In this document: positions 9,960 to 31,397 of the stretch, piece after piece
How positions within the stretch are numbered: position 1 is the stretch's first letter
How the letters are laid out: each line of letters opens with the position of its first letter
Assembly: GCA_964502885.1 (NCBI GenBank)
Contig: CAZCXU010000001.1
Location: forward strand, 17,994 to 81,993
Direction of reading: 5' to 3'
DNA from: an uncultured Gammaproteobacteria bacterium
GTDB lineage: Bacteria; Patescibacteriota; Microgenomatia; CAZETR01; Amesbacteraceae
DNA length: 64,000 nt
Notes under the pieces: generated by a model
What the model was told of the DNA's origin: nothing
The model's input: only the letters and a program-made list of their open reading frames with translations
The model's database searches: none
Translations under genes and position numbers: made by a program

Positions 9960-10070
9960 ATTTTTGGACTAAAAAAAATTAAGATAGGGCCAACTTAGCG
10001 AGATGAGAAAGCCTCTCAAGCTGTGGCTAATTCTTAACTGAATATGCGAATTATATCACGCAATTGATTT

Positions 10071-14647: not shown

Positions 14648-14676
14648 TTGTGGCAAATAGAAGATTCTGTTACAAT
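14648..14676 (+). promoter_or_regulatory. Sigma70-like promoter for fusA-tuf (TTGTGG-N17-TACAAT)
   Basis: TTGTGG at 14648-53, a 17-nt spacer, and TACAAT at 14671-76, about 28 nt upstream of the fusA ATG. Confidence 0.4.
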
Positions 14677-14704
14677 TTGCATCTGACGCTTTCGTCTTTT
14701 TTTT

Positions 14705-16843
14705 ATGGCCGACGTAAAAACTACTAATCGAAATGTCCCGCTAGATCGGGTACGAAACATTGGAATCATTGCCCATATTGATGCTGGAAAGACGACAACC
14801 TCTGAGCGAATTTTGTACTATACCGGAAAAAGCTACAAGATCGGGGATATTGATGATGGTGATACACAAATGGACTGGATGGAGCAGGAAAAAGAGAGAG
14901 GAATCACCATCGTATCTGCAGCAACAACAACTTTTTGGACTGTGCAAGACCCACATTCTCCAGTCCCCCACGCTTCGTACCGAATCAATTTGATCGATAC
15001 ACCAGGTCATGTGGATTTCACTGCGGAAGTCGAGCGATCATTGCGAGTACTGGATGGAGCTGTGACCGTGTTGGATGCGGAAGAAACCGTGCAATCGCAG
15101 ACTGAGACCGTGTGGAGACAGGCAGATAAATATAAGGTGCCGCGAATCATATTTGTAAATAAGAATGACAAATTGGGAGCTAACTTTGAAGGAACAATTA
15201 AAGCAGTGATCGACAGATTGGGAGCCAACCCAGCAGTGATGGCTTATCCTATTGGAGCCGAACACTCTTTTAAGGGCGTAGTTCTCCTCCTGGAAAGAAA
15301 AGCTTTGGTGTGGCAGGGAGACGAAACAGGAGCTAAGTATACGGAAGAAGAAGTCTCTGCTGATATGACTGAGAAAGTTGAGCAATGGAGAGCTAAGTTA
15401 GTGGAACAAATATGCGAAACAGACGACGCGCTTCTAGAAAAGTTTCTATCAGGCGAAGAACCCAGCATTCCAGAAATGAAAGAGGCTTTGAGGCGGGCCG
15501 TCATTGCCTATAAATTGGTACCGGTGTACTGCGGCGCTTCTTTAAGAAATAAGGGGGTACAGCCTGTGCTGGACGCCATCGTGGAATACCTGCCGAGCCC
15601 AGTGGATATGGATCATGTGACCGGCACGAATCCGCAAACGGGAGAAGAAGTAAAACGTAAGACTACTAATGAAGAAACTTTGTCGGGACTGGCCTTTAAG
15701 ATCCAAACCGATCCACATGTAGGCCGACTGACTTACTATAGAATCTACTCTGGGACTTTGACAGCCGGCCAATCAATTTATAACGCCTCGAAGCAAAAAG
15801 AGGAACGTGTGTCACGAATGCTTTTGATGCATGCCAACAAACGGGAAGAAATCGATAAGGCCTTCGCTGGGGAAATCGTGGCTTTGGTTGGGCTTAAAGA
15901 AACAACCACCGGAAACACGTTGTGTGATAGATCCAATCCGATTCTTTTGGAGTCAATCAGTTTTCCAGAACCAGTCATTTCACTAGCTATTGAGCCTAAA
16001 ACCAAATCTGACCAGGAGAAGATGGGATATGCCTTGGCTAAATTGTCGGATGAAGATCCAACTTTTATGATAAAGACTAACCATGAAACGGGTCAAACTA
16101 TTGTGGCGGGAATGGGTGAATTGCATTTGGAAATTATCGTGGATCGCATGAAGCGAGAATTTGGCGTAGAAGCAACAACAGGAGCGCCACAGGTTGCATA
16201 TAAAGAAACCATTAAGAAACTTACTGAGGGCGAGGGAAAATACATTCGACAATCTGGCGGTCGCGGGCAATATGGCCACTGTCTCATCAGAATGGAACCG
16301 CTACCCAGAGGATCGGGGTACGAGTGGGTAAACGCAATTAAAGGTGGTGCCATTCCGGGAGAATTCATTGCACCTATTGAAAAGGGTATTAAAGAAGCTA
16401 TGGAAAATGGAGCTTTGGCCGGTTTTCCGACAGTAGATGTGAGGGTAACTCTGTACGACGGGTCGTACCATGACGTTGATTCATCAGAAATGGCGTTTAA
16501 GATTGCTGGATCGATGGCTTTCCAGGCTGCAGCTAAACAAGGGGACTTAACACTTCTTGAGCCGGTTATGAAAGTTGAAGTGTCTACTCCTGATGATTTC
16601 ATGGGCGAGGTAATTGGGGACCTGTCTGCGAAAAGGGCACAGATTTTGGGGACCGATAAAAGGGGTCATCTGACAATTGTAAGAGCATATGTGCCTCTGT
16701 CAGAGTTGTCCGGATATGCAACCAGGTTGAGATCACTGACTCAAGGTAGAGCATCATATTATATGGAACCATCACACTATGATGAGGTTCCGCGTAATAT
16801 TGCTGAAGCGGTTGTGGCAAAGAGCGGTAAACATGCCAATTAA
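14705..16843 (+). CDS. fusA: Elongation factor G
   Basis: 712 aa. NIGIIAHIDAGKTTTSERIL, DTPGHVDF, and all five EF-G domains. Confidence 0.95.
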   Translation: MADVKTTNRNVPLDRVRNIGIIAHIDAGKTTTSERILYYTGKSYKIGDIDDGDTQMDWMEQEKERGITIVSAATTTFWTVQDPHSPVPHASYRINLIDTPGHVDFTAEVERSLRVLDGAVTVLDAEETVQSQTETVWRQADKYKVPRIIFVNKNDKLGANFEGTIKAVIDRLGANPAVMAYPIGAEHSFKGVVLLLERKALVWQGDETGAKYTEEEVSADMTEKVEQWRAKLVEQICETDDALLEKFLSGEEPSIPEMKEALRRAVIAYKLVPVYCGASLRNKGVQPVLDAIVEYLPSPVDMDHVTGTNPQTGEEVKRKTTNEETLSGLAFKIQTDPHVGRLTYYRIYSGTLTAGQSIYNASKQKEERVSRMLLMHANKREEIDKAFAGEIVALVGLKETTTGNTLCDRSNPILLESISFPEPVISLAIEPKTKSDQEKMGYALAKLSDEDPTFMIKTNHETGQTIVAGMGELHLEIIVDRMKREFGVEATTGAPQVAYKETIKKLTEGEGKYIRQSGGRGQYGHCLIRMEPLPRGSGYEWVNAIKGGAIPGEFIAPIEKGIKEAMENGALAGFPTVDVRVTLYDGSYHDVDSSEMAFKIAGSMAFQAAAKQGDLTLLEPVMKVEVSTPDDFMGEVIGDLSAKRAQILGTDKRGHLTIVRAYVPLSELSGYATRLRSLTQGRASYYMEPSHYDEVPRNIAEAVVAKSGKHAN

Positions 16844-16927: not shown

Positions 16928-18106
16928 ATGGCAACGTTTGTCCGCAGTAAACCACATGTAAATATCGGAACCATCGGTCACGTTGATCACGGTAAGACCA
17001 CTCTGACTTCCGCCATTACCATGGTATTGTCGAAAAAGGGTTGGGCTACTGCTAAGAAGTACGAAGATATTGATTCTGCACCGGAGGAGAGAGCCCGTGG
17101 AGTTACCATTAATCTTTCGCACCAAGAGTACGAAACTGAAAAAAGACACTATGCGCACATTGATGCTCCAGGTCACGCTGACTATATCAAAAACATGATT
17201 ACCGGAGCTGCTCAGATGGATGGCGCCATATTAGTAGTTTCAGCCCCAGATGGTCCAATGCCACAAACTCGTGAGCACATTTTGTTGGCTAATCAGGTAA
17301 ATGTTCCTGCTATTGTGGTCTTTCTAAATAAGTGCGATATGGTGGATGACGCTCAACTTTTGGATTTAGTTGAAATGGAAGTTCGTGAATTGTTGACAAA
17401 ATATGGTTTCCCTGGTGATGAAGTGCCAATTATAAGAGGTTCTGCTCTAAAAGCCACAGAGGGTGATCCAGAAGCGGAAAAGGCGATTCTTGACCTGATG
17501 GAAAAAGTGGATTCTTATGTTCCAGATCCTGTTCGCCAATTGGACAAGCCGTTTTTAATGCCTGTGGAAGACGTGTTTTCAATTAAAGGACGAGGAACTG
17601 TAGTGACGGGGAGAATTGATCGCGGAATTGTAAAGGTGAATGATACTGTGGAGATTGTCGGTATCAAGCCAACACAGACAACAGTTGTAACTGGTGTGGA
17701 GATGTTTAGAAAGCAATTGGATGAGGGTCAGGCCGGAGACAACGTCGGGCTGCTTCTCAGGGGTATTGATAAAGAAAAGGTAGAACGGGGCCAGGTTATT
17801 GCCAAGGTTGGATCAGTCACTCCACATACTGAGTTTGAAGCTCAGGTGTATATCCTGAAGAAGGAAGAGGGTGGTCGCCATACTTCGTTCTTCTCTGGTT
17901 ATCGCCCACAGTTCTATATTCGCACAACTGATGTAACAGGCGAGGTAACACTAGCTGCCGGTGTGGAAATGGTTATGCCTGGTGATAACGCCAAAATGAC
18001 AATTAAGCTCATTGCTCCAGTAGCTCTTGAAGAAGGTCTGCGATTTGCTATCCGCGAAGGCGGAAAAACTGTTGGAGCCGGTGTGGTAAGCAAGATCATT
18101 AGCTAA
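16928..18106 (+). CDS. tuf: Elongation factor Tu
   Basis: 392 aa. [48 protein letters not shown]. Confidence 0.95.
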
Positions 18107-18108
18107 TT

Positions 18109-18153
18109 GCCCGATCAGCTGGTGAGATGGGTTTAACGGTTCGGGCGTTTTTT
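18109..18153 (+). terminator. Possible intrinsic terminator after tuf (GCCCGA...TCGGGC stem followed by a T-run)
   Basis: GCCCGA at 18109-14 pairs with TCGGGC at 18141-46. The 26-nt loop contains a CAGCTG palindrome. TTTTTT follows at 18148-53. The long loop lowers confidence. Confidence 0.3.
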
Positions 18154-18163
18154 GTACATTAAT

Positions 18164-18472
18164 ATGGCAAAGGGAAGACTAAGAGTAAAACTAAAATCAT
18201 TTGACCATCGCGTCCTCGATGAGGCTGCTGCTAAGATATTGGAAGCCGCGTTTTCAACAGGAGCCAAAGTAGTTGGCCCAGTTCCCTTGCCTACTGATAG
18301 AAAATTGATAGTTGTAACAACTTCACCCCATGTAGATAAGAATGCCCGGGATCATTATGAAATGTTGGTTCATAAGCGACTGGTAGATATTGTGGATCCA
18401 ACTGGGAAAACAATTGATGCCCTGTCACACCTGGACTTGCCTGCGGGTGTGGATATTGAAGTTAAGATGTAA
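18164..18472 (+). CDS. rpsJ: 30S ribosomal protein S10
   Basis: MAKGRLRVKLKSFDHRVLDEAAAKILEAA... The ATG at 18164 matches the canonical S10 N-terminus. The ORF-track start at 18152 is an upstream TTG. Confidence 0.9.
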   Translation: MAKGRLRVKLKSFDHRVLDEAAAKILEAAFSTGAKVVGPVPLPTDRKLIVVTTSPHVDKNARDHYEMLVHKRLVDIVDPTGKTIDALSHLDLPAGVDIEVKM

Positions 18473-18485
18473 TTTGTGTTAAAAT

Positions 18486-18532
18486 AAGCACGTTTTGTAA
18501 GCAGAGAAACTTGCCTGAATTAGTGCTTACAA
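18486..18532 (+). promoter_or_regulatory. Mutually exclusive inverted repeats in the rpsJ-rplC spacer, forming a putative regulatory leader
   Basis: AAGCAC (18487-92) can pair with GTGCTT (18523-28). Alternatively TTGTAAGCA (18495-503) can pair with TGCTTACAA (18524-32). Both use the same right arm, which is an attenuator-like arrangement. Confidence 0.35.
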
Positions 18533-18567
18533 ATCTCGGCAGGCTAATTAGATCAAAATAATTAGAA

Positions 18568-18588
18568 GTGCCTCCGGGCGCTTTTTTT
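18568..18588 (+). terminator. Intrinsic-terminator-like hairpin plus U7 between rpsJ and rplC
   Basis: GUGCC-uccg-GGCGC forms a 5-bp GC-rich stem with one G-U pair and a tetraloop. TTTTTTT follows at 18582-88. It lies inside an otherwise conserved operon. The ORF-track rplC N-extension (GTG 18568) reads through this element. Confidence 0.4.
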
Positions 18589-18630
18589 GTTGAATATATG
18601 ATAAATAGCTTTTTTGCAAAAAAAACCAGA

Positions 18631-19170
18631 ATGACTATGGCCTTCTCCCCATCCGGGGATCAAATTGGCGTCACTGAGCTTTTTGTGCCACAAACCACAG
18701 TAAAGGACTTGCGATCAAAAGAAAAAAATGGATACGCTGCACTGAGATTAGAGATTGCAGACGGAAAAAAAACACTGATTAGAGAGGTGAGATCCGAAGA
18801 TAGTGTTGCGATTGGGACAGAGATAAAGTTTGAGGAAATTCTTAAACCTGGAGACATCGTGTCCGTGTCCGGCATTTCCAAAGGGAAGGGTTTCGCAGGT
18901 GTGGTTAAACGTCATAATTTTAAGGGCGGACCCAGAACTCATGGTCAATCAGATAGGGAAAGGGCTCCAGGAAGCAGTGGCTCAACCACTACACCAGGCC
19001 GAGTTTTTAAGGGAACCCGTAGAGCTGGACACATGGGCAATGTGAGGGTGATGATGAGAGGCCTAAAAGTACATGAGGTGGATGCTGCTAACCATAGAAT
19101 ATTTTTGATCGGATCTATTCCGGGATTTTCCAGAAAGGGTTCATTATTAACTATTAGAAAATCAAAATGA
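18631..19170 (+). CDS. rplC: 50S ribosomal protein L3 with a divergent N-terminus
   Basis: SKGKGFAGVVKRHNFKGGPRTHGQS...TPGRVFKGTRRAGHMGNVRV is the L3 core. The start was placed at ATG 18631 (MTMAFSPSGDQIG...) downstream of the terminator-like element. The usual GMTRIF N-terminal motif is replaced. Confidence 0.75.
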   Translation: MTMAFSPSGDQIGVTELFVPQTTVKDLRSKEKNGYAALRLEIADGKKTLIREVRSEDSVAIGTEIKFEEILKPGDIVSVSGISKGKGFAGVVKRHNFKGGPRTHGQSDRERAPGSSGSTTTPGRVFKGTRRAGHMGNVRVMMRGLKVHEVDAANHRIFLIGSIPGFSRKGSLLTIRKSK

Positions 19171-25471: not shown

Positions 25472-25792
25472 ATGAAAATTGTAAGACAAAAACATCAGGA
25501 TACCAAGCGCTTTTCCCGCACGAAAGGTAAGCTTGAAACAACAAAACGAGCACACAAACTTCTTGTGAGGCGCAGTAATAAGTTTATCTATGCTCAAATT
25601 CTTGAGCTTTCGTCCGGAAAAACCTTAGCCGGGGTAAAAGCGGCAAAAGCCTCTGAGGCAGGAAAGCTGATAGCTGAAAAGGCCAAAGAACTGAAGGTGG
25701 AGGAAATTGTTTTTGATCGAGGATCAAAAAAATATCATGGGCAGATTAAGTTACTAGCAGATGCCGCCAGACAGGGAGGGTTGGTTTTCTAA
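25472..25792 (+). CDS. rplR: 50S ribosomal protein L18
   Basis: 106 aa. [16 protein letters not shown]18 signature. Confidence 0.9.
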
Positions 25793-25796
25793 AAAT

Positions 25797-26255
25797 ATGA
25801 ATACTTTTGAAAGACAACCAAGAGAATTTGACGAGAAAGTTGTACAAATTAATCGGGTAAGCAAAAAGACCAAGGGAGGAAATCGTGTCAGTTTTGCTGC
25901 ATTGATGGTGGTCGGAGATAAAAAGGGTCGAGTGGGTGTTGGTTTGGGGAAAGCTGTTGATGTCTCCTCCGCAATGAAGAAGGCCAGTATCGCGGCGCAA
26001 AAGAAAATGATAACAGTGGCAATGAGGGGGACAACTATTCCCCACGAAGTCAGAATAAAATTTGGCGCTGCGAGAATAATTCTGAAACCCGCTCCAGCCG
26101 GAAGTGGGGTTATTGCCGGAGGTTCGGTGAGAGCAGTTGTGGAAGCGGCCGGAATTAGAGATGTGATAGGCAAGATATTGGGAACCAATAACAAAATCAG
26201 CAATGTCTATGCGACTTTTGAAGCACTAACCCGCCTGAAACAAAAAACACTATGA
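25797..26255 (+). CDS. rpsE: 30S ribosomal protein S5
   Basis: Start at ATG 25797 ([28 protein letters not shown]), after the L18 stop. 152 aa. Confidence 0.9.
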
Positions 26256-26698
26256 ATTTAGCAAATTTACCTAAGATAGTGAGTCATAAATCCAAACGAG
26301 TTGGACGTGGAATAGGCTCCGGTAAAGGCGGCCACACCACTGGCCGTGGCAATAAAGGCCAAAAAGCTCGCGGTAATATGTCGCCGCTTTTTGAAGGCAC
26401 TAAAGCCAAGAAGTCGTTTATTAAAAGATTGCCTCTACTTCGAGGAAAGGGAAGAATGAAGCCTATTTCCGCAAAACCGACAATTATTAATCTGAGTGAC
26501 TTATCCTCGTGGAACAAAGAACAAAAAGTTAACTTAGCAAATTTAGTGAAGAACGGCCTGGTGAATGAACGCACAAACTCCGTAAAAGTACTTGGAAGCG
26601 GAGAAATCGGTAAGGCCCTGCAGTTTGAAAAGGTATTAGTTTCAGCGTCTGCCCTAAAAAAGATAGAATCAGCGGGTGGAAGCGTAAATAAAAAATAA
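26252..26698 (+). CDS. rplO: 50S ribosomal protein L15. It follows S5 directly, so there is no L30 gene.
   Basis: 148 aa. [26 protein letters not shown]. The S5 end overlaps the L15 start by 4 nt, which leaves no room for rpmD. Confidence 0.9.
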
Positions 26699-30181: not shown

Positions 30182-30529
30182 ATGAATAACCAAGGTAAAG
30201 TGTTTGTCACAGCAACTTTCAACAACACACTGGTGTCAATTACAGATGCCTCTGGAAATGTTGTTGCCTGGGGTTCAGCTGGAGCTTCTGGATTTAAAGG
30301 GGCGAGGAAATCAACTCCATACGCTGCAACTACGGCCGTTGAAGCGACAGCAAGAAAAGCTCAATCTGCAGGCATTAAAGAAGTTGAAGTCTACCTAAAA
30401 GGACCAGGTGCGGGACGAGATGCCGCCCTAAGAGCACTGAAGGCCGCCGGAATGAAAATGTCTTTGATCGCTGATGTGACGCCCATGGCGCACAATGGAG
30501 CCAGACCCAAGAAAAAAAGGAGAGTTTAA
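30182..30529 (+). CDS. rpsK: 30S ribosomal protein S11
   Basis: 115 aa. [18 protein letters not shown]...[13 protein letters not shown]. Confidence 0.9.
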
Positions 30530-30536
30530 GGTGGGA

Positions 30537-31397
30537 ATGCTGTTTGCAAACGATTGGATAGATTATGAGCTGGTAGATTCCGGGCAAGGAGCAAAACTGG
30601 AAAGATGGGGACAGTTTTTGACAGTAAGACCAGATCCGCGGGCTATTTGGAAAAGAACACTTTCAAAAACGGAATGGGAAGAATGTGATGCACACTTTGT
30701 TAATAACGAAGATAGTGGTGAGTGGCAAATGCACAATTCCCCACCCACACCCTGGCAAATTTCATACAACGGACTAAAGTTCAATCTAAAACCCACAGAC
30801 TTCAGACATGTGGGAATATTTCCAGAACAAGCAGCCAACTGGAACTGGCTACAGGAAAGACTTCACAAAACGATTCTTAATGATAGACCTAGAGTATTGA
30901 ATCTGTTTGCATACACAGGTGGGGCTACATTAGCCTGTCTGAAAGCGGGTGCACATGTAACTCATGTAGACTCCTCAAAACCAGCTATGTTGTGGGCTTC
31001 AGAAAACGTAACACTGTCCAAACTCGACAAACAAAGCGTGAGGTGGATACAAGATGATGCAGTAAAATTTGTCAAACGAGAAATTCGCAGAGGCGTAAAA
31101 TACGATGGAATTATTATGGATCCGCCACGTTTTGGACATGGCACAAGAGGAGAAGTGTGGAAACTAGCTGACAACTTAAGTGAATTGATTCAGGATTGTG
31201 CCAACATATTATCCGATAATCCTGCTTTCTTTTTGGTAAATGCGTACACTGCCGATCTGTCACCTATTGCCATTGAGCATGTAATAAAAGATGCATTAAA
31301 ATTTGCGACTATTGAATCCGGAGAGGTGGGATTAAAAGAGACCGCATCAGGTAAAATCCTACCAGCGGGAATATTTGGCAGAGCGATCTTTGATTAA
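30537..31397 (+). CDS. Class I SAM-dependent rRNA methyltransferase, RlmI/RlmK-like catalytic domain without PUA
   Basis: 286 aa from ATG 30537. VLNLFAYTGGATLACLKAGA (SAM motif I), DSSKPA, and the active-site region GIIMDPPRFG. It occupies the position where rpsD-rpoA-rplQ normally follow rpsK. Confidence 0.7.
   Translation: MLFANDWIDYELVDSGQGAKLERWGQFLTVRPDPRAIWKRTLSKTEWEECDAHFVNNEDSGEWQMHNSPPTPWQISYNGLKFNLKPTDFRHVGIFPEQAANWNWLQERLHKTILNDRPRVLNLFAYTGGATLACLKAGAHVTHVDSSKPAMLWASENVTLSKLDKQSVRWIQDDAVKFVKREIRRGVKYDGIIMDPPRFGHGTRGEVWKLADNLSELIQDCANILSDNPAFFLVNAYTADLSPIAIEHVIKDALKFATIESGEVGLKETASGKILPAGIFGRAIFD

Follow-up and report, generated by a model that had tools for sequence, protein, structure and literature searches.

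What separates rpsJ from rplC in a genome of the Candidate Phyla Radiation (CPR), and to which operon does the intervening sequence belong? Between the S10 and L3 genes of the 64-kb stretch of DNA analyzed here (the window), the initial annotation placed an attenuator internal to the S10 operon, on the premise that the two genes are normally adjacent. The premise holds in part: the rpsJ-rplC gap has a median of 31 nt across 144 loci of numerous phyla (it is 32 nt in Escherichia coli), but 44 of the 144 gaps are at least 100 nt long. We consider it fairly probable that the spacer is an operon boundary, carrying a promoter and a leader of about 105 nt that would give autogenous feedback by attenuation.

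Gene order and limits of the spacer

The source contig has its affinity with CPR/Microgenomates and is Amesbacteria-like. Among genome records, the nearest is that of a Candidatus Amesbacteria MAG, with S10 and L3 proteins 90% and 61% identical, respectively, to those of the window. The window S10 shares 90 to 97% identity with Amesbacteria S10 proteins, and the named homologues at 86 to 96% are all from Amesbacteria.

The features of the locus are collected in Table 1. Genes fusA, tuf, and rpsJ lie upstream of the spacer, and 3′ of it comes an uninterrupted cluster of ribosomal protein (r-protein) genes, the rplC-to-rpsK operon, with 26 genes including secY over ~12.8 kb in an S10-spc-alpha-like arrangement. 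The rpsE-rplO interval (window positions 25761 to 26698) is devoid of rpmD (L30), and rpsK is followed by a gene for a SAM-dependent methyltransferase (30182 to 31397), not by rpsD-rpoA-rplQ. There is no rpsL or rpsG upstream of fusA, and the genes 5′ of fusA are on the opposite strand. The whole 64 kb spans the main r-protein clusters, yet no tRNA, rRNA, or known leader is found in it at the Rfam gathering score.

Table 1. Genes, predicted promoter elements, and RNA elements around the rpsJ-rplC spacer (window positions)
Feature	Position	Strand	Description and evidence
fusA	14705-16843	+	Gene order
tuf	16928-18106	+	Gene order
rpsJ (S10)	18164-18472	+	Last gene of the putative upstream fusA-tuf-rpsJ unit; stop TAA 18470-72; ORF list
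-35-like hexamer TTGAAG	18456-18461	+	Promoter scan; weak evidence alone
Extended -10 element TGTTAAAAT (TGnTAnAAT)	18477-18485	+	Predicted; promoter scan and conservation in relatives
P1 hairpin	18494-18533	+	Arms 18494-18503/18524-18533 (10 nt, perfect); folding and covariation
Pseudoknot 5′ strand GCCUG	18513-18517	+	Inside the P1 loop; pairs with 18540-44
Pseudoknot 3′ strand CAGGC	18540-18544	+	GGC invariant in 13 sequences; downstream nnGGC segment in relatives
A/U-rich linker hairpin CUAAUUA/UAAUUAG	18544-18565	+	Folding; variable linker
Intrinsic-terminator-like hairpin	18564-18588	+	Stem 18564-72/18577-85, core GUGCC/GGCGC, loop UCCG, U7 18582-88
rplC (L3)	18598-19170	+	Corrected start ATG 18598, 190 aa; homologue alignments

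The spacer had been described as 158 bp long (18473 to 18630) and followed by an L3 gene with a replaced N terminus. Its actual length is 125 nt (18473 to 18597), since positions 18598 to 18630 are coding and L3 starts at ATG 18598. From this codon the protein begins with MINSFFAKKTRMTMAF..., the canonical L3 N terminus. The tblastn alignment of L3 to the nearest genome begins at residue 1, relatives likewise align from residue 1, and L3 homologues (190 to 193 aa) cover 99 to 100% of the 190-aa version. The supposed replacement is thus an artifact of start codon annotation.

The L3 frame is open from 18568, and two other starts were considered and ruled out: ATG 18631 (179 aa; deposited annotation P0001), because homologues align from 18598, and GTG 18568, because the frame of this GTG relative to the L3 ATG differs among relatives. 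The corresponding GUG, located in the terminator stem described below, shares the L3 frame in some relatives but not in L175, L183, or L189, and the conserved GUG-CCn-nnn-GGC-ACU-UUU-UUU is often miscalled as an L3 N-terminal extension, “VPSGTFFV.” Since the frame is broken in these three loci and the terminator of L196 has a different stem sequence, conservation of the stem reflects RNA structure and not coding. L3 starts are systematically misannotated in the clade, either at a GTG within the terminator stem or at an internal ATG (P0001, P0008, P0019, P0021, P0053, and others); the deposited window record, starting at 18631, loses 11 L3 residues.

That the spacer is structured was confirmed, as positions 18470 to 18600 fold at -35.5 kcal/mol (z = -3.3), with 0 of 200 shuffles as good. 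The z score is -2.3 for the exact interval of the initial annotation and also -2.3 for the minus strand.

A conserved module beside rplC

Homologues of S10 and L3 were taken from the protein database and their contigs were fetched by exact-protein look-up. Another 12 distinct upstream regions were obtained in this way, with L3 proteins only 55 to 64% identical to that of the window. A scan of the genome collection with L3 found one close relative, and a scan of the metagenome collection found nothing closer than 45% identity. The resulting 13 distinct sequences (the window and 12 others, all Amesbacteria-like contigs) share one layout without exception: an extended -10 element (degenerate in L200), P1, a pseudoknot, a variable linker, the terminator, and the L3 ATG.

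The spacer holds a probable promoter for rplC, as judged from sequence conservation. In the first 10 relatives, the -10 columns T9, G10, T12, A13, A15, A16, and T17 are invariant; with all 13 sequences aligned, T9, G10, A13, A16, and T17 remain so, and conservation is 90% or more at T12 and A15. The element is clear in 12 of the 13 sequences, 8 to 16 nt upstream of P1, and the divergent L200 has a poorer box there. Matches to TGNTANAAT are not enriched in the window (15 versus 12 expected). Since the -35-like hexamer, 18 nt upstream of the -10, falls within the rpsJ reading frame, the last codons of rpsJ overlap the -35 region of the predicted rplC promoter. Transcription is predicted to start at about 18490 to 18492, i.e., ~7 nt after the -10.

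Next comes P1, whose loop in the window is 20 nt long (GAGAAACUUGCCUGAAUUAG, 18504 to 18523), with positions GA.A.A..GCC...A.UA conserved in relatives. There, P1 starts 8 to 16 nt after the -10 and has a loop of 17 to 20 nt (consensus GAGAAAnUUGCCnnAUUAg). Its 8 core pairs are 88 to 91% paired, and 4 or 5 of them, depending on the alignment, show compensatory changes; the window itself carries a private one, from G-C to A-U. The second conserved interaction, missed by the initial annotation, is, from comparison of the sequences, an H-type pseudoknot between the P1 loop and a downstream segment. Covariation is seen in its two variable pairs (UA/AU/CG and AU/GC/UA): as the two nucleotides 3′ of GCC change, so do the two 5′ of GGC, giving the combinations GCC-UG/CA-GGC, GCC-UU/AA-GGC, GCC-UA/UA-GGC, and GCC-AAC/GUU-GGC. 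In L183 and L195, the pseudoknot is in a shifted register (UGGCC/GGCCA). The linker that follows varies in length and sequence among relatives, some of which have no hairpin there.

The last element, a GC-rich stem with a tetraloop and U7 at 18568 to 18588, is borne out exactly as first described (GUGCC 18568-72, UCCG 18573-76, GGCGC 18577-81, U7 18582-88), and A-U and G-U pairs lengthen its stem to 18564-85, for a total of 9 pairs, 4 of them G-C, around a 4-nt loop. A GC-rich stem, a short loop, and a U-run directly after it are the sequence marks of an intrinsic terminator, and this hairpin is the top terminator-like site between 14000 and 30000. It is found in all 13 sequences, where 91 to 94% of its cells pair and compensatory changes occur (UA/UG/CG and AU/GC). 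In relatives, the GC hairpin is directly followed by U6-8 and, after 1 to 17 nt, by the L3 ATG (a gap of ~10 nt in the window; in L201, U7 abuts the ATG). The rplC start codon is devoid of an SD sequence. The 1 to 17 nt between the U-run and the ATG are too few for a promoter, so that rplC can be expressed only if polymerase reads through the hairpin-U7, and an obligatory read-through of this kind defines an attenuator. Termination at this site is itself a prediction, as are the promoter and the transcription start.

Covariation was assessed over 8 pairs of P1, 5 of the pseudoknot, and 8 of the terminator. In the model-fitted alignment, 91.5% of cells were paired (33 to 47% in slid controls), with 9 compensatory pairs and a covariation score of 0.282 versus 0.157 for shuffles; in a plain MAFFT alignment, 89.0% were paired (34 to 47% in slid controls), with 10 compensatory pairs and a score of 0.272 versus 0.155. 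The score was reached by 0 of 500 shuffles in either alignment, a positive outcome for the conservation test that had been proposed for the locus. The relatives form one clade, so that these counts are not fully independent events. RNAalifold independently recovers P1 and the terminator.

Not everything proposed for the spacer withstood this comparison. It had been said to hold two mutually exclusive hairpins sharing one arm. Both exist and share their 3′ arm, one (I1) being P1 and the other (I3) pairing 18485-18491 with 18523-18529 (7 nt), but a switch between them is not a conserved mechanism: I3 is 60.5% paired across relatives as against 57% for shuffles, of which 47 in 500 do as well. I3 was therefore rejected as peculiar to the window genome; its 5′ arm shares positions with the -10 box and with the predicted start. 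One could ask whether the whole structure arose by chance in an A/T-rich spacer, as would hold for the proposed pair of alternative hairpins. Neither I3 nor the A/U-rich linker hairpin is conserved, and terminator-like sites are not enriched between 14 and 30 kb (18 versus 15.2 expected). Such an origin is nevertheless barely credible for P1, the pseudoknot, and the terminator, which 13 sequences retain, with compensatory changes, despite L3 proteins only ~55 to 64% identical.

The module is also linked to rplC. In L175-180, L189-194, L196, L200, and L201, unrelated ORFs of 60 to 148 aa lie between rpsJ and the promoter, and the module stays beside rplC; in L169-174, the genes that come after rpsJ are unrelated and do not include rplC. 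Since the module keeps its place at rplC even where rpsJ has been separated from that gene, and since the -10 box is conserved, we take the spacer to be an operon boundary. The element would be the 5′ leader of the rplC-to-rpsK operon, rpsJ would belong to fusA-tuf-rpsJ, and the placement inside the operon suggested at first is probably wrong. The rpsJ-rplC junction appears as a hot spot of insertion and rearrangement in Amesbacteria, where the inserted ORFs are mutually unrelated and have no Pfam matches. In one lineage, the gene after rpsJ is tmk, on the opposite strand, and rplC is located elsewhere.

A complete small RNA (sRNA) unit has these same parts, namely a promoter, a structured RNA, and a terminator, and the segment could be a stable trans-acting RNA of ~95 nt that happens to neighbor rplC. 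At E ≤ 10, the only Rfam 15 matches in the window are indeed sRNAs, far below threshold and driven by the terminator. We find an independent sRNA very improbable, since the element lies directly 5′ of rplC and in the same orientation in all 13 sequences with no promoter downstream, which makes it a leader by position, and since the covariance model of the module (R1) finds no second copy within the 64 kb.

Candidate mechanism of control and its alternatives

R-protein leaders (r-leaders) are found in the 5′ UTR of r-protein mRNAs, have a conserved structure backed by covariation, and repress their operon when bound by one of its own r-proteins. The element studied here lies directly 5′ of rplC in 13/13 sequences, after a predicted transcription start, and its structure is 89 to 91.5% paired with 9 to 10 compensatory pairs. 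By analogy with known leaders, autogenous r-protein control by attenuation appears to be its most likely function. Transcription would begin at the leader's own predicted promoter and proceed through the P1/pseudoknot domain, the variable linker, and the terminator to rplC. An r-protein encoded by the operon, once in excess over rRNA, would bind the pseudoknot domain and favor termination at the hairpin-U7, and its binding might also hinder 30S loading at the adjacent SD-less start. With no r-protein bound, RNA polymerase would read through into rplC. The candidate ligand is L4 by precedent, with L3 or L6 as alternatives.

No convincing conserved anti-terminator was found: pairing of the pseudoknot 3′ strand region with the terminator 5′ arm gave a mean z of -0.9, and no single sequence was significant. 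Folds of truncated transcripts do pair these two regions, with duplex energies weakly better than those of shuffles. A NusA/pause-type mechanism, as in E. coli, would be an equally possible switch. The weak pairing potential could also be the expression platform of a riboswitch, P1/pseudoknot being the aptamer for a small molecule (a nucleotide, or an alarmone reporting the growth state) that gates the terminator. The compact architecture, a pseudoknot and then a terminator, and the high conservation of single-stranded loop nucleotides would fit this explanation. We hold it to be quite improbable, given that no Rfam family matches (E ≤ 10 in the window, E ≤ 1 in relatives), that the well-studied leaders of r-protein operons all bind r-proteins, and that the distribution is restricted to a narrow clade, as for r-leaders.

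Resemblance to rRNA bears on the ligand of an autogenous leader, since r-leaders frequently, though not always, mimic the rRNA site of their protein. The best two-segment match, in permuted order, was that of the base of P1 and the flanks of its loop to E. coli 23S positions 2736 to 2772 (helix 97), which scored 22/26 against what is a foreign rRNA. With one indel allowed, 3 of 200 column shuffles reach the score (p ~0.015, a post hoc and marginal value), and an ungapped two-segment mimicry test was not significant. Helix 97 is contacted by uL6 (PMC4199504, PMC9687910), and the marginal resemblance would point to L6 rather than L4. Another lead, 23S 272-287 near the L4/L24 region, was discounted because the leader positions involved covary with the pseudoknot. 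The boldest proposal would make P1/pseudoknot a growth-state riboswitch directly gating the 26-gene r-protein/secY operon, in a CPR bacterium with few of the conventional regulators, and no r-protein operator at all; in a milder version, it would be an operator for uL6 or uL3, never before seen as autoregulators, built as a circularly permuted mimic of helix 97. We regard this proposal as a long shot.

The absence of a clear anti-terminator also agrees with a constitutive boundary, in which the hairpin-U7 is a leaky terminator or insulator setting the ratio of tuf-rpsJ to downstream expression, the promoter tops up the latter, and P1/pseudoknot is a ligand-free element of stability, processing, or folding. 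The junction does behave as an inter-operon boundary, with its insertions and rearrangements, and a similar hairpin with U6 comes after tuf. Nevertheless, a plain terminator needs no 50-nt pseudoknotted domain with an invariant loop at a fixed upstream place, a promoter firing into a constitutive terminator ~95 nt further on would be wasteful, and the terminator adjoins rplC and not the 3′ end of the upstream gene. On these grounds, we judge a constitutive boundary unlikely.

The autogenous attenuation that we prefer is compatible with, and does not exclude, a translational operator, in which a regulator bound to P1/pseudoknot controls 30S access and the hairpin and U-run form a structured, U-rich (S1-type) initiation region. 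The start codon follows the U-run within 1 to 17 nt (abutting it in L201), the SD-less rplC, fusA, and rpsJ have a hairpin and a U-run just 5′ (rpsO has a U-run), and control by the E. coli S10 leader likewise includes a translational arm (PMC3616713). We think it rather unlikely as the explanation, as the hairpin and U-run lie ~50 nt from the ATG in L003 and L084 and a 9-bp GC-rich stem directly followed by U7 is a canonical intrinsic terminator. Because of the recurrence before SD-less fusA, rpsJ, and rpsO, the U-run may also, or instead, serve translation initiation.

A hairpin and a U-run right before an SD-less first cistron are thus also seen in the window at fusA and at rpsJ; rpsO has the U-run alone. 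Upstream of fusA (14668 to 14707, + strand), an extended -10 element (TGTTACAAT, 14668-76) precedes a tiny hairpin GACG-CUUU-CGUC and U8 abutting the ATG at 14705. The tuf-rpsJ spacer (18107 to 18163, + strand) contains a hairpin GCCCGA (18109-14)/UCGGGC (18141-46) followed by U6, ending 10 nt before the rpsJ ATG; it folds no better than shuffles (z = -1.0), and rpsJ must be read through from tuf, as a promoter would not fit behind the hairpin. Upstream of rpsO (9960 to 10058, - strand; ATG 9959-9957) lie an extended -10 element (TGATATAAT, 10058-10050), a leader of ~90 nt with nested stems and U8, and an SD-less ATG. The rpsO product is S15 (Pfam E = 2e-34), and the region upstream may be an S15 autoregulatory leader. 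Its fold has a z of -1.4, and its weak match to model R1 (16.8 bits) reflects the shared layout.

Known leaders, distribution, and significance

The likeness to the E. coli L4/S10 leader suggested by the initial annotation is sustained as a resemblance of layout, with a structured element and a terminator-like hairpin directly before rplC. The E. coli leader responds to L4 through a Rho-independent terminator and a required upstream hairpin; it controls both transcription and translation and has no classical anti-terminator (PMC3616713). Like that leader, the element precedes the L3-L4-L23-L2... genes and has its terminator shortly before the first cistron, with a structured element directly upstream. 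Unlike it, the element is downstream of rpsJ and before rplC, whereas that of E. coli precedes rpsJ, and it consists of a pseudoknot and not of five hairpins; L4 is here only a candidate ligand. Model R1 did not match the E. coli S10 leader even with filters off, and there is no detectable homology to its HD-HG hairpins.

A comparable position is that of an L4 r-leader candidate of Archaeoglobi, found upstream of rplC-rplD-rplW-rplB, with its ligand assigned by precedent and rated uncertain by its authors (Eckert & Weinberg 2020, PMC7247131). Both elements are directly upstream of rplC, leave S10 outside the operon, and have a ligand by precedent only. The archaeal motif is unrelated, and Rfam 15 gives no match here. 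Motifs described in Firmicutes and Peptostreptococcaceae as rpsJ/S10 r-leaders (PMC7247131, PMC11109978) resemble the present element as lineage-restricted, structured leaders of the S10 cluster that emerged from comparative genomics; they differ in lying upstream of rpsJ, and no Rfam match connects them.

Two further comparisons concern gene order and the terminator. An rpsJ placed after tuf, with a separate L3 operon, is known from archaea, cyanobacteria, and Thermotoga. The split of fusA-tuf-rpsJ from rplC... in the window is of the same kind; there it is a matter of gene order, and here a conserved module of promoter, leader, and terminator marks it. In its E. coli version, the L20 site is an rRNA-mimicking pseudoknot. 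In Bacillus subtilis, the infC-rpmI-rplT leader is controlled by L20 through transcription attenuation with a conditional intrinsic terminator (PMC1865079). The B. subtilis leader and the present element share a terminator in the leader of an r-protein operon and differ in operon, protein, and fold, and B. subtilis has a defined anti-terminator/terminator alternative, which could not be demonstrated for the present element.

Run on ~190 loci of other lineages, model R1 found no convincing member beyond the Amesbacteria-like set; L081, L002, and L082 match it through the hairpin and U-run only. This part of the module is more widespread. Among loci with a spacer of 40 to 1,000 nt between recognizable rpsJ and rplC, a GC hairpin with U5-9 was present upstream of rplC in every scanned Microgenomates-like or Saccharibacteria locus (L001-L003, L007, L034, L081-84, and L114) and in 0 of ~50 comparable loci from other phyla. 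The hairpin and U-run were also seen by eye in L004, which has no recognizable rpsJ and fell outside the scan. From these sequences, rplC leaders of the terminator type seem to be the rule in this part of the CPR, with a sensor domain specific to the lineage, a pattern typical of r-leaders.

Rfam 15 had no match at the gathering score over the whole window, and nothing at E ≤ 1 in the leader region of the 12 relatives. Applied to the E. coli S10 (L4) leader itself (L205, NC_000913.3 3452800-3453800), it returned no family, so that a negative Rfam result is no test of membership there. No rplC leader in CPR/Patescibacteria, nor a description of this RNA motif, was found in the literature searched. 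The element is a new RNA motif of a well-known kind, that of r-protein leaders and attenuators, and not a member of the S10-leader family.

Most of the known autogenous r-protein leaders come from a small number of cultivated phyla, each motif being narrowly distributed, and we found none for the CPR in Rfam 15 or in the literature searched. The anatomy of the leader corrects the systematic misannotation of L3 starts in the clade, and with a compact RNA of ~50 nt the protein partner is directly testable. Conservation of the module suggests that, in this clade, the rpsJ-rplC junction truly separates two transcription units, as it does in archaea and cyanobacteria. If the candidate leader is true, it would by itself control the whole r-protein cluster of ~12.8 kb in organisms whose genomes are tiny and whose regulators are few.
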